NCBI GenBank assembly: GCA_964431515.1
Contig: CAYSKF010000003.1
Coordinates: 164,986-228,985, forward strand
DNA from: an uncultured Bdellovibrio sp.
GTDB lineage: Bacteria > Bdellovibrionota > Bdellovibrionia > Bdellovibrionales > Bdellovibrionaceae
Length of the DNA stretch: 64,000 bases
Reading direction: 5' to 3'
The notes under the pieces are model-generated. The model saw only the letters and a list, made by a program, of their open reading frames with translations. It was not told where the DNA came from and did no database searches. The translations under genes and the position numbers were made by a program. Positions 53,264-63,208 of the stretch are shown here, piece after piece. Each line of letters starts with the position of its first letter. The stretch's first letter is position 1.

Positions 53264-53320
53264 AAAACGACTCAAGCTGAGACTTCTGTCTAGCTTTGCA
53301 CATTTTTTATACATCACCCT

Positions 53321-53347
53321 TAAGTTCGTCTACTTTCTTGACGATAA
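53321..53347 (+). promoter_or_regulatory. sigma28/FliA-type promoter
   Basis: TAAG-N15-GACGATAA. Confidence 0.6.
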
Positions 53348-53387
53348 AAGTTTTGACACTTTTACGTTCACTGAAAGGAACTGATTT

Positions 53388-54944
53388 ATGATTAATTGGG
53401 ATGAGTTTGAACATATACATGTCATTAACAAGCTCAAACAGATCCTCACTGCATGGTGGAATATCGATGTTGTATTTACAGATGAGCGAGGCCAACTGAG
53501 AGGCTATGACTCTGATAAAATAACATTCACCAACCCTGCCATTTCTGCTCTAGTGAAAAAAGAAGCCGGACAATCTAGCATCGTCGAGCTTGTTTCCAAA
53601 TCACTAGATGATTTAAGAACCTCACAAAATCGCTATAGCATTCGTAAATGGGATCTTGCAGGTTTCGATGTAGGCATCTTTCCAATCATGATTGACAACG
53701 ATTGTGTTGGCACCGTTGTCGCGATGGGTTTCTTCCGCGAACCAAATTTTACTGCGCGGATGTCTGAGATTCGTGAGCGTCTCGCCGCATTCGGATTATC
53801 TGGAGAAGTCATCGAAAAATCTCTTGGTAAACTTAAATTTTTAGATGAACACGATCGCAATCACTTCACTGAACTGTGTGAGCTGGTCGCACAAGAGATT
53901 GTGACTCTTCATTTAGAAATCACCTCGCGTGAAGATCGTATCAAAGAACTGAATAAAGAACTGGGCAACCGCTTTAAGTACGACAACATGATCGGTAAAT
54001 CCAAACCGATGCAGTCTTTGTATGCACTCCTTGATAAAATCAAAGGCGCGGACTCAACGGTTCTTGTTCAGGGTGAAAACGGAACTGGTAAGGAATTGAT
54101 TGCAAAGTCTATTCACTACAACTCGCACCGTAAAGATAAGGCCTTCATCATTCAGAACTGCTCGGCTTTCAATGACAACCTTCTTGAATCCGAACTTTTC
54201 GGTCACGTAAAAGGCTCTTTTACTGGTGCACTCAAAGATAAAAAAGGTCTATTCGAAATGGCCGACAAGGGAACTTTCTTCCTTGATGAGATCGGTGACA
54301 CTTCACCACAAATGCAAGTGAAGCTTCTTCGCGTACTGCAAGAAGGCACTTTCACACCAGTTGGTGCGACAGAGTCCCGCAAAGTGGATGTGCGAATTGT
54401 GGCCGCTACAAATCGTAATTTGCGCGAAATGGTAGAACAAGGAACTTTCCGGGAAGACTTGTACTATCGTTTAAATGTTATCAATATTCGTGTCCCACCT
54501 CTTCGTGAACGTAAAGAGGACATCCCTATCCTAGTGGATTTCTTCTTAAACAAAATTCACGATCAACAAGGTGGACCAAAACGTCAGATCACAAAACGTG
54601 CTTTGGAAAAACTGTACGACTATCCATGGCCAGGCAACGTCCGTGAATTGCAGAATGAGATCGAAAGACTTTGTGTTCTTTCTGGCGATGAAACAAAACT
54701 GATGGCAGAACTTTTATCGCCTAAGGTTTTAGAGGCCGGCGAGAAAAACAAGGTTCAAGGCTCTCGCCTTCAAGGGAAACTGAAGGATGCTTTGGAAGAT
54801 CTTGAGCGCGACATGATTCGTGAAGGCTTGCGACGTACAGGCTGGAACAAATCCAAGCTGGCAAAAGAGCTTGGCATCAGTCGGGCCGGACTTATTATGA
54901 AAGTTGAAAAGTACGGACTCGATAAACGAAAGCTAGCTCGTTAA
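53388..54944 (+). CDS. sigma54-dependent activator (PocR/GAF-like sensor, AAA+, Fis HTH)
   Basis: GENGTGKE, ESELFGH, GSFTGA, FLDEIG, FREDLYYRL, WPGNVREL and AKELGISR. Confidence 0.95.
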   Translation: MINWDEFEHIHVINKLKQILTAWWNIDVVFTDERGQLRGYDSDKITFTNPAISALVKKEAGQSSIVELVSKSLDDLRTSQNRYSIRKWDLAGFDVGIFPIMIDNDCVGTVVAMGFFREPNFTARMSEIRERLAAFGLSGEVIEKSLGKLKFLDEHDRNHFTELCELVAQEIVTLHLEITSREDRIKELNKELGNRFKYDNMIGKSKPMQSLYALLDKIKGADSTVLVQGENGTGKELIAKSIHYNSHRKDKAFIIQNCSAFNDNLLESELFGHVKGSFTGALKDKKGLFEMADKGTFFLDEIGDTSPQMQVKLLRVLQEGTFTPVGATESRKVDVRIVAATNRNLREMVEQGTFREDLYYRLNVINIRVPPLRERKEDIPILVDFFLNKIHDQQGGPKRQITKRALEKLYDYPWPGNVRELQNEIERLCVLSGDETKLMAELLSPKVLEAGEKNKVQGSRLQGKLKDALEDLERDMIREGLRRTGWNKSKLAKELGISRAGLIMKVEKYGLDKRKLAR

Positions 54945-54969
54945 GACTAGAAAAGTTGCGAATTTTACG

Positions 54970-55004
54970 CACAACAATGCAAAAAGGTACGGCGTACCTT
55001 CGGA
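54970..55004 (+). repeat. REP-like palindromic element, copy 2
   Basis: CAATGCAAAAAGGTACGGCGTACCTTC (54975-55001) is identical to the reverse complement of 42906-42932. Confidence 0.85.
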
Positions 55005-55006
55005 GC

Positions 55007-55036
55007 AAAACCCCCGGGATTAACGGGGGTTTTTTT
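55007..55036 (+). terminator. Intrinsic terminator
   Basis: AAAACCCCCG...CGGGGGTTTTTTT. Confidence 0.88.
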
Positions 55037-55184
55037 GTGTGCGCAGATGGTCACTACCCTAAATTATTTACCTGAATGATCTAATTCTAGTGGGTTTTTA
55101 CGGCGCTCAATCGCATAAACATAAAGTCATCACTTCTTCTCTATCTATTTGATACCTAAGTGGTATTTTGAATACTTATGAACT

Positions 55185-55200
55185 TGGCACCAGTCTTGTA
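55185..55200 (+). promoter_or_regulatory. sigma54 promoter (one mismatch at -12)
   Basis: TGGCAC-CAGTC-TTGTA. Confidence 0.55.
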
Positions 55201-55231
55201 TAAAAGGGTTTTCGATAAGGGGTGCGTGCTT

Positions 55232-56101
55232 ATGCAAAACTCAACATTGAATAGCTCATTTGTTAATCGCTTGAGACAGATTCTTGAGAGCCGCTATGGG
55301 AAGGGTTTACAGATTCGCCAGTTGATGGATATTGCCGAGCTTCGCTCGGAAGAAGCTTTCACGCGGGGGCGTGATCTTCATATTCCAATCCAAGTGAATG
55401 GTGCCTACTTAGGAACAGCTGTTGTTCCTGGAGCCGATGACCTGAATACAGAGCGCCGCCAAGGCGTTGCCCAATTAGTTCGTATGGTTTTAGAACCGGC
55501 CATGTACAAATGGTACCTTGATCAAAGAGAGTCTAATCTAGAAGAAATCAGCAAGGCACATCTCAACCTTGAAAATGTTCGTTTATTCGGAGAACCTCGC
55601 CCGCCGACCATGGACGAGATTCTGGAAGAACAACTTAAAAATATAAATGAGGGGCCAACAGGGGATTTAATTTCTCATCTCATTCACCTTGCAGGACGCT
55701 CAGAAAATACAAATAAGAAAGTAGCTCTTTATCTTCATGAATTAACAGGGCGCTGGGCCTTTGTTCCCTTTAATGACATAAAAGCTCAGCTTCATTCAGC
55801 ACAAGACATTGCCAAACTGGGGGCCATGACGATTTTCATTGAGAAACTGGATGAACTCAGCAGTTTCGAGCAAAACCTTTTGCTTGAATACGTCGCCGAA
55901 GACCGCGCAGCAGATGAGCCGCTTCTCATTACAAGCTCAACCCTACAGCTCGACGCCCTTGAAAGCTCCAATCTGAATGCAGATTTGATTGACGAGTTGT
56001 CGGTCAATTCTTTTGAAGTGGACAGGGCACCACTTAGTACACAAAGCCTCAAAGAAGTTCTTGAGTTGTTTTTCCTTAAAGAAAAACCTCTCGACGCCTA
56101 A
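55232..56101 (+). CDS. Degenerate paralog of the upstream sigma54 activator (pseudo-AAA+, no HTH)
   Basis: Colinear similarity to 53388-54944 seen by eye, with catalytic motifs lost; start ATG 55232 after AAGGGG. Confidence 0.65.
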   Translation: MQNSTLNSSFVNRLRQILESRYGKGLQIRQLMDIAELRSEEAFTRGRDLHIPIQVNGAYLGTAVVPGADDLNTERRQGVAQLVRMVLEPAMYKWYLDQRESNLEEISKAHLNLENVRLFGEPRPPTMDEILEEQLKNINEGPTGDLISHLIHLAGRSENTNKKVALYLHELTGRWAFVPFNDIKAQLHSAQDIAKLGAMTIFIEKLDELSSFEQNLLLEYVAEDRAADEPLLITSSTLQLDALESSNLNADLIDELSVNSFEVDRAPLSTQSLKEVLELFFLKEKPLDA

Positions 56102-56148
56102 CCGTTTATTTCTTGAAAATCATCCGAGTGTCTGTGAGAATTTTTCTT

Positions 56149-57168
56149 ATGGTCACTCATGATGAATTTCTAACTCCATTTTTAAGCCGGGCTCTAAACT
56201 CTAATTCCTACAAGGTTTTCTCCCTTGCGGGTGATGCTTCCAATAGACGATATTATCGAGTCGTCATGGATCAACAATCCTGGGTTCTCATGCGCTGGGA
56301 ACCATTTCAACCGGATAACTATCCTTTTTTAAGTGTTCTAAATCATTTTGCCAAAAATGGAGTGCATGTCCCTGAAGTGATTGCCATGTCACCCGAAGAA
56401 GGCTTGGTTCTTTTAGAGGACTTAGGGGATCTCACGCTAGAAAGAAAATTCTGGGAAAATCAAAAACAAGACGCCGCGATGGACTTCTATCAAATGGCTG
56501 TCGATGAAATTGTTAAGATTCATCATCCTGCAACACTAGATAAGTCCGATTGCACCGCTTTCAAAATTCAATTTGATACTGAAAAGTTTCTTTGGGAAAT
56601 GAATTACGGAAAAGACAATCTTATCGCAGGGGTCTTAAATTTCAAATTCAGTGATTCTTTAAATAAAGAAATCACCGCGATCTTTACCGATATTGCATCT
56701 CGATTACACAGAGAACCCAAAAGAATTGCACACCGAGACTACCACTCACGCAATTTGATGATCAAATTAGACAAAATGACAGTTATCGATTTTCAAGATG
56801 CAAGACTTGGACCTATTCAATACGACTTAGTTAGCCTCATGAGAGATTCCTACGTCGACATGTCTGATGCCATGGCAAAAAGTCTTATTGATTACTACTT
56901 AGAAAAATCCAAAGAATATTTGCCTACAGACTTCTCGCGAGAACAGTTTGACCACATTTATGAGCTGCAGTCTATTCAGCGCTGTTTTAAGGCTTGTGGC
57001 AGCTTCGCTAGCTTTTATCACCTCAGACAAGATCGACGTTACTTGAAATATCTTTCAGGTACTTTGCGCCGAGTGCTGAAGGCTATCAATGAGTTTCCTG
57101 AATATAAAGTTTTTGCAGATGTCTTAATTGATTCTGGAGCCTTGGAAAGAAAGTACGACTCTTTATGA
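56149..57168 (+). CDS. amgK: Anomeric MurNAc/GlcNAc kinase (APH family)
   Basis: LAGDASNRRYYR, LEDLGD, HRDYHSRNLM, IDFQDA and QRCFKACG; adjacent to a nucleotidyltransferase. Confidence 0.82.
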   Translation: MVTHDEFLTPFLSRALNSNSYKVFSLAGDASNRRYYRVVMDQQSWVLMRWEPFQPDNYPFLSVLNHFAKNGVHVPEVIAMSPEEGLVLLEDLGDLTLERKFWENQKQDAAMDFYQMAVDEIVKIHHPATLDKSDCTAFKIQFDTEKFLWEMNYGKDNLIAGVLNFKFSDSLNKEITAIFTDIASRLHREPKRIAHRDYHSRNLMIKLDKMTVIDFQDARLGPIQYDLVSLMRDSYVDMSDAMAKSLIDYYLEKSKEYLPTDFSREQFDHIYELQSIQRCFKACGSFASFYHLRQDRRYLKYLSGTLRRVLKAINEFPEYKVFADVLIDSGALERKYDSL

Positions 57169-58166: not shown

Positions 58167-59126
58167 CTATTTCTGCAAAGCCAGCTCAGCGTCACTAAAA
58201 AAGGACTCTTGGCTTTCTTTTACTTTATAGCGGCGATTCATCATATGAAAGATACTGTCAGCAGCGACACCGATCGGTTCGCCATTATAGTTTTTTTGCA
58301 TACCCGCAAGACTGGAAGGATCTCTTGCCAATCCCAAGCCGGCACCAGAGCCTGAAGTCGCAGCCAATGAAGTAGACCCATCATCACTTGAAGATGATGA
58401 AGACGAACCACCGCCACCACCGCCTTCTTCATATCCTGAAGAAGCTGTCATTGCGCCTAGTTTTAGTTTCTCCATTTTTTCAGCTGCTTTTTTCGCCACT
58501 GATTTTTCATAATCACTCAATCCAGCAATTGCACCAGGGGGAAAACCTGCTGAGGCCATTCCATCACGAGATGCAAGATCTGCAATCTTTACGTCTTTTC
58601 CGTTCAACTTAATTGTGCCTTTCTTTTGATTTAAGAGTCCCTGCTTTTCCATATTTTTAAGCTGATTCATAGCCGCTCTCATTGTTGGGTCTTTCAACAA
58701 TGGGCTGTTAGGGTTCCTTGGATCCGTAGGGTCCAAATTACCTGGTCCGCCATCTGCGCCTGTCCCGTCAGTCAATGATCCCGTAAAATTCGCTTGATTC
58801 TGGGTGGCACCGTGAGCGTTACCTTGGGCCATTGACATGATTCCCATGGCAACCTGCAAAACTCCCAAGGCGACCTGTCCATAGTTTTGATCAGCAGATC
58901 CTGTTTTTATATTTATTCCACCTTGCGTGATAGAGATGCCACCCGCAAGAAAAGACATAATCTTTCCCGTCGAATTCGAACCCGACGTCGCACCAGCGCC
59001 CTGATTTACCGAAGGTGTATTGGGAACCGCAACTCTTTTAGTTTCAACGCCCGATTGTGAATAAGCCACCATGGGCGCCAGAGCCATACTGAAAGAGCAA
59101 GTAAAGATCATTAAATTTCTTTTCAT
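58167..59126 (-). CDS. Exported Gly/Ser-rich hypothetical protein
   Basis: Signal peptide, two Gly-rich hydrophobic helices, G/S tract, C-terminal SIFHMMNRRY. Confidence 0.8.
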   Translation of the reverse strand: MKRNLMIFTCSFSMALAPMVAYSQSGVETKRVAVPNTPSVNQGAGATSGSNSTGKIMSFLAGGISITQGGINIKTGSADQNYGQVALGVLQVAMGIMSMAQGNAHGATQNQANFTGSLTDGTGADGGPGNLDPTDPRNPNSPLLKDPTMRAAMNQLKNMEKQGLLNQKKGTIKLNGKDVKIADLASRDGMASAGFPPGAIAGLSDYEKSVAKKAAEKMEKLKLGAMTASSGYEEGGGGGGSSSSSSSDDGSTSLAATSGSGAGLGLARDPSSLAGMQKNYNGEPIGVAADSIFHMMNRRYKVKESQESFFSDAELALQK

Positions 59127-59135
59127 AGAGGACTC

Positions 59136-60719
59136 CTAGTTACTCAATAATGAATTCTTATTATCGCGATAACGGTCTCGCACTTTTTCCCAGTTGGACT
59201 TTCCACCCTGACCCGTTACTTCTCGGGTCCATGACTGTTGCCCCGCCAAACCTCGCGCTGGATCTTTCGCTCCACCAGGAAGGTAGGCACGATAAGCACT
59301 CGCAGCACCCGAACCGCGAACGCCGCTCCAACTTCCACCACCACCTCCGCCGCCGCCACCAGCTGCGCCCAAGATGTTGGCATTAAGACCTTTCTTTTCC
59401 TCAGCTCCCTCTCCTGCTCCCTTTCCAGTGCCAGCAAGACCACCACCACCAAGGCCACCTCCGCCGCTACCACTGCCAAAGGCACCGGCACCATCTGAAT
59501 CAGAGTTGCCAGTAAAAGCTAAATTTTTATCTTCATCACCGCCACCACCTAAAGTGCTAGGACCCGGCCCTTTATTACCAATAGTCGAACCACCACCTGT
59601 GGCCTTGTTACCAGCAATAAGTGAAGCACTTGAATTTTCACCTGGTTTTGTATAACCGTTAGAGCAACCTGGAGTTCGCGGATTCGCCATGCAAATACAT
59701 TCAGGCAATGCTGCATTTTTAGGATCTGCACACTTAGCTTTTTCTTCTTCTGTTGCAACAACACCTGTTCCATTCGTTTGCTCTTCACAATCTTTACTTT
59801 GCTTCAGACTATTCATAACCGAAGCAATACCGACCCCTGCAGAAAGTAACATATTTGCATATTCGTAAGTGCAGGCTTTATTTTTAAGAGCAATCGACTT
59901 CCGAACTGCTAGGTCCGAATCAAGCTTAACCACGTGATTTAATTTTAGCAAAAAGGTTTTCACAGCACTTCTATATTGTCCACAAGCAGGCTCTGCTAGT
60001 GCCAGACCCTCAGGATCTGTTTTTACTCCCGTACATTCAATCAGCTTCGCTTCTGTCGGTAAAATTTTTACTATCCGTTTCAGGTTCGCGTTTACGGTGG
60101 AACACGCCCCCTCACAAGCGGCCCTCGCCGCAGAACAGGCCGCTGTATAAGCAGTTAAACCTGCTTGCCCAATTCGCATAAGTTTGGCCATATTACTACA
60201 GGCATCTTTAACAGCAACACCACCAATCATTCCCATGATTGTATTCATATCATTCAAAGATTTCTGTAAATGAGGACTCGTTTTCTCACGACATAAGCCC
60301 GAAGCAGTGGATTGTGTTTTCACACAGGTTCCGTGTAGATTGGAATAGAAAGAAAATGCTCCAAGCAACTCCTTCATACCAGCCATATCATATTGATGGA
60401 TACTGGGATCTAGGGTACTCATAGCCGTCTTTACAGCTCCAAGCGCGGCTTCAGCTTCCTTGAGTTCCTTTTCATGTCCCTCATCTAGAGCTTCCCCCTG
60501 GGCATCTACAGCACCCTGACTTGAGGCAAGGCCATCAGCTGGGCCTGACCGTGTAGCACCACCTGCCGCACTATGATCGAACTTAACCTGTAGGTGCTCT
60601 GGAGTGGCTCTGATTCCTATCCCGCCTTTAGGGTTTAATGATTGGCCATATGAACAAACAGACCACATCAAAATCGACAGAGTAGTGACAATAAATGACA
60701 ATTTCTTCCATCTAGACAT
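59136..60719 (-). CDS. Exported Cys-rich/Gly-rich hypothetical protein
   Basis: Signal peptide, many Cys, poly-Gly tail, C-terminal SNWEKVRDRY. Confidence 0.8.
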   Translation of the reverse strand: MSRWKKLSFIVTTLSILMWSVCSYGQSLNPKGGIGIRATPEHLQVKFDHSAAGGATRSGPADGLASSQGAVDAQGEALDEGHEKELKEAEAALGAVKTAMSTLDPSIHQYDMAGMKELLGAFSFYSNLHGTCVKTQSTASGLCREKTSPHLQKSLNDMNTIMGMIGGVAVKDACSNMAKLMRIGQAGLTAYTAACSAARAACEGACSTVNANLKRIVKILPTEAKLIECTGVKTDPEGLALAEPACGQYRSAVKTFLLKLNHVVKLDSDLAVRKSIALKNKACTYEYANMLLSAGVGIASVMNSLKQSKDCEEQTNGTGVVATEEEKAKCADPKNAALPECICMANPRTPGCSNGYTKPGENSSASLIAGNKATGGGSTIGNKGPGPSTLGGGGDEDKNLAFTGNSDSDGAGAFGSGSGGGGLGGGGLAGTGKGAGEGAEEKKGLNANILGAAGGGGGGGGGSWSGVRGSGAASAYRAYLPGGAKDPARGLAGQQSWTREVTGQGGKSNWEKVRDRYRDNKNSLLSN

Positions 60720-60739
60720 AATTTTCCCCTGCAGTATTA

Positions 60740-60766
60740 GTTTCGGACAAAAGTCCTAAATACTAA
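60740..60766 (-). promoter_or_regulatory. Possible sigma28/FliA-type promoter
   Basis: TTAG-N15-TCCGAAAC. Confidence 0.45.
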
Positions 60767-60857
60767 AGGACTCTTAGTTATTAGGGTGAAATGTGACTCA
60801 TTATGAAGCGATTCAAAGAAAAAAATTAGATTGTGAAAAAGTATAGAGCTAAAAGGC

Positions 60858-63086
60858 TTAGAAATCTTCGTCTGCCGGAGGGGGATTCAATATGGATCCC
60901 GGCGAAGTGCTTTCCCCACCCAACTTTAATTCATTTGAACGTAAGTAACTCGTAGATACCATCTTAACCGAATATCCACTTGTTCCACCATAAACACAAT
61001 TTCCAGAGGTTGGTGGTTTTGGATCATTCTCAGCTTCACCAACAGGTGTTGCTATACATTTCCCAAGCTTATTAGTATCCAACGAGTAATTGGTCAAACT
61101 GACCGGCGCCCAACCGGTCAACAGGTGCTCCCACTTTTCCGTAATGTAGGTAAACTGCTTATTTATAAGTTCTTTCGTATTAACAGGGTCATAAGGGTCT
61201 TTAATTTTTTCATACAAGTTTTTGACACTAAACTTTGCGTAATCTGGATGCGTCCTGCGATATCCAAGATCTGGCCTAAATACTCGAGTAATGCCCTTTC
61301 CAGGTCCCTGAAGATAACCATTTAAAATTTTCAAATAGTAGTTGTGATAAAAATCAGGTTCGATCGAGTAATAAGTCATATCAAAATTATCAGGCATGAT
61401 GGCAGCCATCTCTAGAAGCCGCATCGTAGAGGGTACTTGATTCATATTATCCCAGGCCAACATGTCACCTGAACCATTCTGCTTGTTAAATTCGTGTGGC
61501 AACTCGGTCCAATGATCATAAGCTGGGGCTGAATTACCTACATAGGGAGTCCCAGCAGGTGGATCAGTTACAGAAGCCCTCCAGCCATCATCTAAATTGA
61601 AAATAGCCTCTCCAAAATACCCAATCATTTTTAAACTTTTCAGGCCGAAATTATCACCGATATAGCGACTGTAATTTGCAGCCATAAACTCAGCATTTGC
61701 AACATCATCGTATACGTTCCCAAACTGTGAAATATCCGTGATACGTGGAGGAAGATTTGGATCTGTGCGCTCATTCAAGCTTCCTGTGGATTTTGTGTTG
61801 GGCCCCCGCAGCCATTGTTTGTAATACCAAGGGCCAATGCGCCCTCCAAAGGGCTTATAAAATGCCCGCGCTTTCAAAGTCACAGCCCCAAAAGGTGAAA
61901 AAGGAATCTTTGGTTTTGCCTCTGCAGAAACTCCGGTATAAGCCATACACCAAGGGTTCTTCTCAACCCCAACTGAAAAATTAAAATTGTCATTCAAGTT
62001 CTGACGAATTCCAAGATACTGAGCAAGCTCATTGACGTTTTGCTCTTGCCCCACCTGATCACGGTACATTGGCAAATCCTGAGTTCTGTTTGTAAGGGGT
62101 CTTATGACAGGTACAAGGTTGTTAGGATCACACTGATTATCAACATACTTAAATCCCGGAATAATGCGAATTGTCTGCAGCCACTTGGCTGGTTGTCCTT
62201 CCGCCAAGCCCTCTGCATTACAGTCAGCTGAACCGAGGGAGTTAAAAACTTTATAACTTCCCGAACCTTCGGTCATCAAACTTTCTCGATTAGCAGCCGT
62301 CAGATTGTTGAGTAATGTTTTTTCAATACCCACTCTTACACTTTGTCCATCCAAATCATAAAAATTATCTTGAGAAAGACTGGTGGCTCGAGACAAGGCT
62401 GCAATAAACTCCATGCGATCACGTTGGTCATAATTAAAGGCCACAACAAAATTCGCTAGCATCAAAAAATTGATCGTGCCCATAGCTTTACATCGATCCA
62501 CCGCAAGATTTTTTAGAGTGTTACTAAGATTGATGACGGAACCCGTAATACCAGACAAATTACTGATAAAGGGGGGAGCTTGCCACAGAATAGTCGTCGT
62601 TGCATTTGCCACATATTTACAGGTGTTCTCGCCTGGAGGAACTTCTTTAAAGGGCATATATGAAATACAAAAAGGCGGAGCTATCTGCCAGTTTTTATAA
62701 TTTTGATTTGTGTGATAATAGTCTTCAATCGCTATAGCGGTATTAATAGTTTTTCTGCTTGGGCCTTGTTTGATATAGGGATGTGCATCAAACTCCCCCG
62801 CCATACCCAGCATTCGATAGCGCCACGCCAGTAGCTTCCAACTTTGCCTGATTTGATAATTGATATGAGCAATGGCATTCATATTTTCAGCCTGTTTCAT
62901 GGCGCCGTAGTAAGCAGCCAAGTCCACCGAGTTCTGTAAATTGACTTTATGATGTACCAACAAGCCAACATTGATCACCATCGCGAAAAATAGAAATAAT
63001 ATCTGAAACGCCAAGGCGATAAAAAGAGCCACTTGGCCCTTTCTGTTTTTGATATTCTGAGTAAAAGTTGATCGCCTATCTAACAT
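60858..63086 (-). CDS. TadG-like (Tad/Flp pilus) pseudopilin/adhesin
   Basis: NRKGQVALFIALAFQILFLFFAMVINVG...LQNSVDLAAYYGA is a Tad N-terminal domain; start uncertain (63086 or 63167). Confidence 0.8.
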   Translation of the reverse strand: MLDRRSTFTQNIKNRKGQVALFIALAFQILFLFFAMVINVGLLVHHKVNLQNSVDLAAYYGAMKQAENMNAIAHINYQIRQSWKLLAWRYRMLGMAGEFDAHPYIKQGPSRKTINTAIAIEDYYHTNQNYKNWQIAPPFCISYMPFKEVPPGENTCKYVANATTTILWQAPPFISNLSGITGSVINLSNTLKNLAVDRCKAMGTINFLMLANFVVAFNYDQRDRMEFIAALSRATSLSQDNFYDLDGQSVRVGIEKTLLNNLTAANRESLMTEGSGSYKVFNSLGSADCNAEGLAEGQPAKWLQTIRIIPGFKYVDNQCDPNNLVPVIRPLTNRTQDLPMYRDQVGQEQNVNELAQYLGIRQNLNDNFNFSVGVEKNPWCMAYTGVSAEAKPKIPFSPFGAVTLKARAFYKPFGGRIGPWYYKQWLRGPNTKSTGSLNERTDPNLPPRITDISQFGNVYDDVANAEFMAANYSRYIGDNFGLKSLKMIGYFGEAIFNLDDGWRASVTDPPAGTPYVGNSAPAYDHWTELPHEFNKQNGSGDMLAWDNMNQVPSTMRLLEMAAIMPDNFDMTYYSIEPDFYHNYYLKILNGYLQGPGKGITRVFRPDLGYRRTHPDYAKFSVKNLYEKIKDPYDPVNTKELINKQFTYITEKWEHLLTGWAPVSLTNYSLDTNKLGKCIATPVGEAENDPKPPTSGNCVYGGTSGYSVKMVSTSYLRSNELKLGGESTSPGSILNPPPADEDF

Positions 63087-63208
63087 ATGTCTTTGAACAT
63101 TCTCACTCAGTAAGGGCAGCAACGCAATAACTCGACCTCGAAAACTTTGACTTAAATGACTTCGCAATGACAGACTTTAGTGCATATCCTCACAAAGGAA
63201 ACTCGACT

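Follow-up and report, generated by a model that had tools for sequence, protein, structure and literature searches.

A catalytically dead homologue of a σ54 activator in Bdellovibrio, probably derived from the activator encoded upstream

The second of two adjacent ORFs in an uncultured Bdellovibrio sp. (contig CAYSKF010000003.1; the window, meaning the whole stretch of DNA analysed, is 64,000 nucleotides long) codes for a degenerate σ54 activator of 289 aa composed of a GAF-like domain and an AAA+ core. This ORF, named here the twin, is likely a duplicate of the intact activator gene found upstream. Our tentative reading is that it encodes a dead homologue maintained by selection, likely induced by the activator at prey entry, which would then bind and damp that activator and so end the pulse of expression. 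For the brief burst of gene expression with which Bdellovibrio enters prey, the locus offers a candidate activator, a promoter class carried by genes of entry-type enzymes, and a candidate for the switch that turns the burst off. If the reading is correct, an inhibitor was made from a σ54 activator itself, living intermediates show in what succession it shed its parts, and the brake provides a testable off-switch for prey-invasion genes.

Organization of the locus and its promoters

Both ORFs lie where the first-pass annotation had placed them. The features of the region are the following:

53320..53346, + strand: σ28 (FliA)-type promoter of the activator, TTAAG-N16-ACGATA
53328-53342: palindrome GTC-N9-GAC overlapping the σ28 site, found in 52/79 loci
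53388..54944, + strand: activator gene, 518 aa
55007..55033, + strand: intrinsic terminator-like hairpin 3′ of the activator, 10-pair stem and T run
55056..55090, no strand assigned: genus-conserved element, ~95-130 nt 5′ of the -24 GG, from the alignment of 25 intergenic regions
55142..55154, - strand: sequence resembling an IHF site, located between the candidate enhancer and the σ54 promoter
55185..55199, + strand: σ54 -24/-12 promoter of the twin, TGGCAC-N5-TTGT
55232..56101, + strand: twin gene, 289 aa
55232..55555, + strand: N-terminal part of the twin (aa 1-108), modelled as a stripped GAF-like domain and a long helix
56113..56141, + strand: σ70-type promoter of amgK-murU, TTGAAA-17-GAGAAT, stopping 7 nt short of the likely start codon
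56149..58160, + strand: amgK-like and murU-like genes, the likely ATG of the first at 56149

A start of the twin at 55178 was rejected as the longer ORF would run over its σ54 promoter; close homologues measure 288-291 aa. The likely orthologues in published datasets are Bd0156 for the activator and Bd0155 for the twin.

The σ28-like promoter and terminator of the activator and the σ54-like promoter of the twin, all proposed in the first-pass annotation, are present, and the two promoters are conserved far beyond shuffled sequences. The Bdellovibrio σ28 consensus is TTAAG-N16-CCGATA (PMC3627812), and a site with at least 9 of 11 matches precedes the activator in 21/21 loci of the genus and in 48/58 of the family and order (1.65 and 5.0 in shuffles). 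This site is a motif prediction: the activator is absent among 140 mapped attack-phase promoters and is assigned to the genes active in both phases. The palindrome that overlaps it is possibly an autoregulatory site of the activator. In the alignment of 25 intergenic regions, a hairpin with a T run is seen in the majority, at variable position. The search of Rfam over the region gave nothing near the gathering score. The sequence GG[CT]A[CT]-N5-TTG occurs in 76 of 80 regions upstream of the twin (shuffles: mean 1.5, maximum 5) and in none of 114 upstream of the activator. As motif evidence of the same kind, a σ54 site also precedes 8/8 of the longer relatives of the twin found in distant families (long forms; see below). 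The conserved element at 55056..55090 is a candidate enhancer. It stays near the twin promoter in two loci (L001/L002) in which the activator is 1.3 kb off. No second strong copy was found when the genome was scanned with it, and nothing convincing emerged from a search for an enhancer motif common to the twin and other σ54-like promoters (39 compared). The TA..TGA columns at the IHF-like site are conserved in the intergenic alignment.

The twin was detected in 81/102 genomes of the order. The order activator-twin is kept in 28 of 40 loci at this level (L031-L070) and in distant families; in the other 12 loci the activator lies more than 650 nt upstream or elsewhere, and the σ54 site of the twin is still there. 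Linkage to amgK is tighter, as this gene is directly 3′ of the twin in 39/40 of the same loci, although twins of distant families have no amgK alongside. The twin was not found in several large families that possess the activator. The search for long forms covered 401 genomes with four candidates scored per genome, so that failure to find them in five large families (f14, f16, f20, f23 and f24) does not amount to absence. RNA contigs from four runs at one locus (L008) break at the activator end in 4/4 and between twin and amgK in 3/4, with one low-depth contig spanning the twin-amgK gap, a weak hint that activator, twin and amgK form three transcription units.

Fold, lost motifs and origin of the twin

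The activator is built of a PocR/GAF-like sensor, a long helix, AAA+, lid and Fis HTH (Pfam). Its AAA+ motifs are intact (GENGTGKE, GSFTGA, FFLDEIG) and it displays every tested attribute of an active σ54 enhancer-binding protein (motifs, loop, lid, HTH and sensor). The N-terminal domain, present in 379/401 genomes of the phylum, was modelled with a pLDDT of 88.6 and has GAF-type structural matches, DhaR(N) matching its fold with Z 8.9. The label “NifA” is unsupported, no NCBIfam equivalog cut-off being reached. The genome carries rpoN and 12 activator-like genes.

GAF-like and AAA+ folds were recovered for the twin, as the first-pass annotation had expected. The AAA+ alpha/beta core (aa 144-285) has neither catalytic nor σ54-contact motifs, nor lid or HTH. 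The protein matches Pfam Sigma54_activ_2 with 27.3 bits (cut-off 25) and the best Foldseek matches of its model are the AAA+ domains of the σ54 activators DmpR, NtrC1, NtrX and PspF; comparisons of the AAA+ model gave Z 10.6-10.8 and rmsd 3.5-4.3 over 116-124 residues. NCBIfam has no family for it. The N-terminal model has middling similarity to GAF structures (Z 8.0-8.2) and appears to retain the GAF core and long helix while both helical insertions of the activator sensor (activator residues 50-78 and 121-146) are gone. In profile comparison, this part matches the hairpin of the activator N-domain with E 6.7e-5 (score 29, compared to at most 18 in 40 column permutations). Its residues are poorly conserved.

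The reported loss of Walker A, Walker B, GAFTGA, arginine fingers and HTH was confirmed in the twin sequence. GRSENTNK stands at the Walker A position (GxxxxGK expected) and TIFIEKLD at that of Walker B (hhhhDE expected). The GSFTGA loop is deleted, as it is in every one of the other 17 twin rows in one alignment. LNADLIDEL occupies the arginine-finger segment, and the protein has no arginine finger, sensor II, lid or HTH. None of the 185 homologues in a deep alignment retains the Walker A, Walker B or GAFTGA motifs, and [FL][FL]DE[IV] is likewise found in 0/185. The gene is nonetheless under purifying selection, as the first-pass annotation had anticipated, with a median dN/dS of 0.038 (7 unsaturated pairs). 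A pseudogene was thus rejected (dN/dS ~0.04) and the term “dead” covers catalysis only.

All seven blocks that had been named as collinear between the two proteins were reproduced. Profile alignment joins twin residues 47-285 to activator residues 94-391 in one collinear block (probability 87%, E 3.9e-6), and the first helix aligns as a weak separate block. The pairwise statistics are significant for profiles but not for single sequences (BLASTP, best E 0.40). The longer relatives retain lid and HTH in 15/15 cases, with the sensor II arginine lost in all. In each of the 15, the lid and HTH part has its best score with this activator, all 11 paralogues of which score lower. The long-form profile gives 233 bits with the activator and 157 with the next paralogue, and finds the short twin with E 1e-16. 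Descent of the twin from the upstream activator is accordingly likely, because its long relatives score nearer to this activator than to the 11 paralogues; this and the profile alignment bear out the earlier view of a degenerate paralogue of a σ54 activator, probably the upstream one. The profile of the short twin has no preference for the upstream activator among the 12 activator-like proteins, two other paralogues scoring higher. With the HMM of the activator N-domain, no twin match is individually significant, while 16 of the top 50 among 6223 sequences are twins. A tree of the lid and HTH part, which left out 3 of 11 paralogues in which the motif used for cutting was not found, groups the activator with the long forms, along with two foreign proteins, at a support of 92/57 (an unstarred grouping); a single clade of activator and long forms was neither rejected nor established (p 0.295).

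In distant families the dead gene lies directly 3′ of the activator and shares a near-identical recognition helix with it (ISRSGLIQKVEKY vs ISRAGLIMKVEKY). These long forms match the short twin weakly (E 0.0017) and may come from a separate duplication; Walker A survives in some of them. Three architectures are found: dead AAA+ with lid and HTH, GAF with dead core, and GAF with helix only. The last includes N-terminal parts of 134-139 aa that stand alone in three genomes (L083-L085). The N-terminal domain of the twin is kept across the order; the GAF part is missing from some distant long forms.

Expression of the likely orthologues and σ54-like sites in the genome

The pulse at prey entry put forward in the first-pass annotation agrees with published transcript and protein tables. 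The Bd0155 transcript is in the predatosome list, increased 1.4 times at 30 min, and falls to 0.12-0.29 times in host-independent growth, in which Bd0156 is down too. Bd0155 protein peaks at 45-60 min with a modest amplitude (1.8-fold over attack phase, 4.9-fold range), the time at which two entry genes, bd0816 and bd3459, are turned off. Bd0156 is enriched and abundant in attack phase, and both its mRNA and its protein drop while the twin orthologue climbs. The proteome signal of the twin is far below that of the activator, values that are not strictly comparable between proteins. In pooled Tn-seq of a host-independent strain, insertions in the likely twin orthologue were near-neutral (W 0.80-1.38) and caused no defect in predation.

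In the genome studied here 40 ORFs are preceded by a strong σ54-like site, compared to 6 in shuffles. Starts resembling signal peptides are enriched among the σ54-site ORFs (23/33, compared to 877/2811). The set includes a divergent DacB, an L,D-transpeptidase, a lytic transglycosylase and a subtilase. At 10 of 12 L,D-transpeptidase matches and one deacetylase, no σ54 site reached a score of 12 and two scored 9-10. Passages of a 2026 review name FliA and never mention RpoN, and full-text searches returned no paper in which Bd0155 or Bd0156 is named or σ54 is tied to prey invasion.

A candidate brake on the activator and its alternatives

In the mechanism that we tentatively favour, σ28 would stock the hunting cell with activator beforehand. 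On sensing a prey cue through its PocR/GAF domain, the activator would then fire σ54 promoters, those of the twin and of entry enzymes that are secreted. The twin would build up with a lag and enter activator oligomers through the GAF domain and long helix and one AAA+ face; lacking lid, arginine finger and GAFTGA loop, it would close off the ring or make it defective, and the pulse would end. Surfaces that likely serve self-association persist in all three architectures, and a catalytic motif set in none, the pattern that a dominant-negative partner would show. Complete motif loss in 185 homologues combined with strong selection counts for such a pseudo-activator brake. It counts against the brake that σ28 shut-off alone can explain the fall of the activator. 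The long forms could, by virtue of the HTH, act as DNA-binding competitors. It is doubtful that the activator is the master switch of prey entry, governing a σ54 regulon of wall-remodelling enzymes for secretion, with its dead duplicate a pseudo-ATPase timer that closes the programme after ~1 h, is kept across Bdellovibrionota and has been trimmed to three architectures.

Several anti-activators inhibit a σ54 activator in trans, PspA among them. NifL and HrpV do so too (HrpV: PMC9542535), as proposed for the twin. All three are unrelated in sequence to their targets, whereas the twin likely derives from its own. Its action is best read as resembling that of TrlR on TraR (Agrobacterium) and CerN on CerM (Cereibacter), described in PMC11655674 as paralogues without DNA-binding domain that antagonise the full-length regulator through heterodimers. 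The twin is likewise a homologue of its presumed target without DNA-binding domain, and CerN is also strongly diverged (31%). TrlR and CerN belong to the LuxR family, not to AAA+, and keep ligand binding, whereas the losses in the twin concern the ATPase, σ54 contact and ring closure, and its antagonism is putative. No comparable truncated-paralogue antagonist was found among σ54 activators. TyrR, DhaR, HupR and VpsR are other activator-derived AAA+ proteins with a damaged GAFTGA, which differ from the HTH-less twin as DNA-binding σ70 regulators (PMC3162934).

A rather unlikely alternative is that the twin is a σ54-regulated entry protein driven by another activator and/or aimed at another target (a different activator, σ54-RNA polymerase or an unrelated partner), adjacency being a relic of duplication. 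The 12 activator-like genes, the 12/40 loci that keep the σ54 site with the activator not within 650 nt, the fall of activator mRNA and protein as the twin rises, and the indifference of the short-twin profile to the upstream activator speak for it. It is countered by the order kept in 28/40 loci and distant families, by the activator's recognition helix retained in long forms, and by the joint drop of both genes in host-independent growth.

It is unlikely that the twin, once induced by the activator, works as a co-factor in a mixed oligomer that shifts promoter choice or sustains a second wave of genes. The wiring from FleQ to fleT in Rhodobacter/Cereibacter sphaeroides is a precedent: an activator induces an HTH-less paralogue from a σ54 operon and then forms hetero-oligomers with it (PMC7277832, PMC11655674), and the HTH of long forms could retune DNA binding. 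FleT is listed as an activator, co-activates and has no sensor domain, whereas the twin keeps a sensor-like domain and no activator motifs; σ28 comes last in the Fle cascade and first at the twin locus. Paralogous σ54 activators also act together in HrpR/HrpS and VnfA1/VnfA3 (PMC9542535) and in RedR1/RedR2; both partners are described as activators and none is a pseudo-ATPase, unlike the twin. The twin has in common with FleQ/FleT and HrpR/HrpS the σ54 promoter (as a motif) on the second paralogue, and is not an activator-type subunit. Without GAFTGA, Walker A/B, arginine finger and lid it can supply neither hydrolysis nor σ54 contact, and some lineages keep just the N-terminal part of 134-139 aa.

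That the GAF-like domain is a sink for a small molecule switching on the activator, the sequestration suggested earlier, is very improbable. The N-terminal domain is indeed kept across the order, and alone in three genomes, but the model has no helices equivalent to activator residues 50-78 and 121-146, which in GAF domains would close a ligand pocket, the residues of the domain are poorly conserved and some distant long forms do without it.

Equally improbable is that the twin heads or controls an amgK-murU wall-recycling unit, given the separate promoter of these genes, their distinct expression and their absence beside distant-family twins, despite amgK lying directly 3′ in 39/40 loci. The first-pass suggestion that the activator co-induces them was rejected on the same promoter and expression grounds, which place them as neighbours outside the regulon of the twin. 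Their best NCBIfam matches are AmgK and MurU, both below cut-offs. The σ70-type promoter is present here and conserved in 20/20 loci of the genus. At entry the transcripts of Bd0154 and Bd0153 do not change, and in host-independent growth they go up where that of the twin falls; Bd0154 protein is flat, with a 1.3-fold range.

Structure and conservation of a degenerate sigma54 activator

The genes of the locus are ordered pbp1A-like, uvrA-like, msbA-like, activator, twin, amgK-like and murU-like (the first two names are assigned from the sequences). The two genes under study are:

53388-54944, plus strand: activator, an intact sigma54 activator gene (518 aa)
55232-56101, plus strand: twin, a degenerate activator-like gene (289 aa)

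The twin is a real, conserved feature. The first-pass annotation described it as collinear with the activator and expected GAF and AAA+ folds. BLASTP of the pair is not significant (E 0.40), but profile-profile comparison of 50 paired loci aligns twin residues 47-285 with activator residues 94-391 in a single collinear stretch, at 87% probability and E 3.9e-6 and with the registers that had been proposed; the first helix of the twin matches the activator as a separate weak block in another profile alignment. The twin passes the Pfam Sigma54_activ_2 cut-off, and its structure model (pLDDT 78.8) matches both expected folds, the AAA+ domains of sigma54 activators and, at residues 1-109, GAF domains with middling scores (Z 8.0-8.2). 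The modelled N-domain of the activator is also GAF-type, with core elements ordered as in the twin, which lacks the helices matching activator residues 50-78 and 121-146. The reported loss of Walker A, Walker B, the GSFTGA loop, the arginine finger and the HTH is accurate, the lid is missing as well, and GxxxxGK, G[AS][FY]TG and [FL][FL]DE[IV] each occur in 0 of 185 homologs. The gene is not decaying and is kept by selection: the dN/dS comparison proposed with the annotation indicates purifying selection, with a median of 0.038 for the twin (7 unsaturated pairs from 20 genus genomes) and 0.046 for the activator (138 pairs).

A search of 401 phylum genomes with a profile of 88 close homologs detects the twin in 86, of which 81 belong to the same order (102 genomes); 2 distant matches may be other activators. 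Of 19 further genomes scored negative at first, a deeper profile shows 10 to have it near the activator. The activator N-domain is present in 379 of the 401 genomes, almost always as one match each. The named relatives of the locus are Bdellovibrio. In published tables for B. bacteriovorus HD100, Bd0159 is uvrA, Bd0156 'NifA', Bd0155 a hypothetical of 870 bp (exactly the twin's length), Bd0154 an APH-domain protein and Bd0153 a nucleotidyltransferase (PMC3627812, PMC12546842). From order, names and length, Bd0156 and Bd0155 are taken as the likely orthologs of activator and twin.

Several variants were observed. Three further genomes carry the N-terminal form alone (134-139 aa; L083:3921-4340, L084:3344-3748, L085:2061-2471), a GAF-like domain plus helix, each with a sigma54 site. 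P0113, a 514 aa homolog found on one contig, joins the twin's first 200 residues to a membrane histidine-kinase-like ATPase domain and is possibly a chimeric assembly. The activator is split into two ORFs at L106:5957-7556 and L115:1526-3104, by frameshift or assembly error. On the minus strand of the window (58167-63167) a TadG-like gene and two ORFs rich in glycine run towards murU, an arrangement conserved in order-level loci.

Promoters and descent of the twin

Both promoter motifs of the proposed sigma28-to-sigma54 cascade are conserved. GG[CT]A[CT]-N5-TTG stands upstream of 76 of the 80 twins, compared with an average of 1.5 and at most 5 in shuffles, and upstream of 0 of 114 activators. 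Three of the other four twins do have a sigma54 site, missed by misplacement of the search window, and so do 8 of 8 distant forms. An element 95-130 nt upstream of the twin's site is conserved in the genus, with an IHF-like site between the two; this is the usual sigma54 layout. The own genome encodes rpoN. Upstream of the activator, the Bdellovibrio FliA consensus (PMC3627812) is matched at ≥9 of 11 positions in 21/21 genus, 48/58 family/order and 13/35 distant loci (shuffles 1.65, 5.0 and 3.05). A GTC-N9-GAC palindrome (53328-53342) overlaps this promoter, occurs in 52 of 79 order-level loci, and is a candidate site for autorepression or for another regulator.

In all 20 genus loci (L131-L150) amgK has its own sigma70-type promoter, whose -10 hexamer ends 7 nt before the ATG (about 8 in L146; window 56113-56151), and no Shine-Dalgarno sequence, which together suggest a leaderless amgK-murU mRNA. 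The true amgK start is likely 56149 rather than the TTG at 56113.

The short twin alone cannot tell parentage, since two other paralogs in the own genome outscore the upstream activator with its profile. The top scorers are activator-like genes at G000:C1:324071-324916 and G000:C8:73790-75202; the product of the former (281 aa) lacks a GAFTGA-type motif and may be a second degenerate activator. The parentage is clearer in long forms that retain lid and HTH. Those of the twin family (L066, located before amgK, P0254 and P0270-P0275; 411-418 aa) yield a profile that finds 182/182 short twins. In other classes, 8 of 35 activator loci hold, directly 3' of the activator, a second, dead one in which lid and HTH are retained, and five more genomes with distant long forms came from an extended search and were then checked. 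The lid and HTH of 15/15 long forms score higher with the window's activator than with its 11 paralogs, although those of the seven order-level forms score equally high against some foreign activators. The profile of the 15 gives 233 bits to the activator, 157 to the next paralog and 59 to the short twin, which distant long forms match weakly (E 0.0017). The recognition helix of the distant forms is nearly identical to the activator's. In a tree of long forms and activators (54 rows, 160 columns, 3 paralogs dropped) the long forms group with the activator at 92/57, two foreign rows included, and a single clade is not rejected (p 0.295). On balance, the twin probably descended from the upstream activator, by one or two duplications.

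Expression of the likely orthologs and proposed role of the twin

Published datasets provide expression values. By RNA-seq (PMC3627812), attack-phase and 3 h levels are 671 and 96 RPKM for Bd0156, 13.9 and 4.7 for Bd0155 (under the expression threshold), and 2.0 and 59 for Bd0154. On arrays (PMC2797640), changes at 30 min and in host-independent growth are x1.44/1.41 (p 0.011, predatosome sheet) and x0.29/0.12 for Bd0155, x0.59/0.53 and x0.38/0.32 for Bd0156, x0.89 and x2.7 for Bd0154, and x0.98 and x1.7 for Bd0153. In the proteome (PMC12546842), Bd0155 passes from log2 3.42 in attack phase through 3.24, 3.96 and 4.25 to 4.30 at 1 h and falls to 2.02 at 5 h (sheet 'EntryPeak'); Bd0156 drops from 8.98 at 15 min to 7.53 at 3 h and then returns, and Bd0154 is flat. 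The entry genes bd0816 and bd3459 are maximal at 15 min and undetectable after 45-60 min (PMC3276566). The array rise and 'EntryPeak' assignment of Bd0155 support the predicted pulse at prey entry. Co-induction of amgK-murU, also predicted, is contradicted by the differing expression of Bd0154 and Bd0153 and by amgK's own promoter. In Tn-seq data for a host-independent strain (PMC6561027; genes matched by gene order), the twin has W of 0.80, 1.38, 0.93 and 1.17 and is dispensable for predation in that assay. The activator is 'ND' in every condition, yet absent from the essential list; murU insertions reduce predation fitness (0.28-0.63) and amgK insertions do not (supplement rows for activator and murU: EP01_RS12560, EP01_RS12545).

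To function, activators must form a ring with nucleotide sites between lid and core, and they depend on GAFTGA and on an arginine finger that acts in trans (PMC7175178). We tentatively favour the twin as a putative negative-feedback subunit that ends a sigma54 pulse, a reading we hold at slightly under even chances. Having core and N-terminal helices, it could join the activator oligomer on one face and, contributing no catalytic parts, cap or spoil it; long forms could additionally compete for the enhancer. A delayed, sigma54-dependent rise would then close a negative feedback on the activator. Such antagonism would resemble that of the truncated paralogs TrlR and CerN (PMC11655674).

There is perhaps one chance in a few that another activator drives the twin or that its target is not the upstream one: the twin's sigma54 site persists where the activator stands elsewhere. 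Against this, the activator lies ≤650 nt upstream in 28 of 40 loci chosen by twin (L031-L070). A FleT-like co-factor is somewhat less probable still; the wiring resembles FleQ/FleT (PMC7277832, PMC11655674), but unlike active or heteromeric sigma54 activators the twin misses every catalytic motif. A ligand sink, by way of the GAF-like domain, and an amgK regulator are both very improbable. In 39 of the same 40 loci amgK stands directly 3' of the twin. We class the negative-feedback subunit as a variant of truncated-paralog regulators, its inhibition putative and the variant itself new. Literature searches, in which subscription papers are thinly covered, returned no description for the Bd0155/Bd0156 tags, for Bdellovibrio with sigma54, or for dead or truncated sigma54-activator paralogs.

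A possible sigma54 regulon

A matrix built from twin promoters (score ≥12) selects 40 of 3331 own-genome ORFs, against 6 in shuffles. By a crude rule, signal-peptide-like starts are found in 23 of 33 ORFs with well-placed sites compared to 877 of 2811 (p 1e-5). Among 20 sigma54-site ORFs scanned with Pfam are a lytic transglycosylase, an L,D-transpeptidase, a divergent DacB, a subtilase, two Bdellovibrio beta-sandwich proteins, an ECF sigma factor and three others, ten having no family; canonical DacB has no site. This enrichment before ORFs for secreted proteins and wall enzymes suggests that sigma54 serves prey-entry genes as a regulon. Twelve activator-like proteins of the own genome are candidate drivers, and no enhancer common to its sigma54-like promoters was found.

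Sigma54-like promoters of this genome (e.g. L215, L221, L226, L229), whose -12 box is often TTGT or TTGA, stand ahead of numerous genes for secreted proteins and for enzymes that modify the wall. A strong sigma54-like site also lies 145 nt ahead of L214 (G000:C35:15726-16346), an ECF-type sigma factor gene that is possibly the next step of the cascade.
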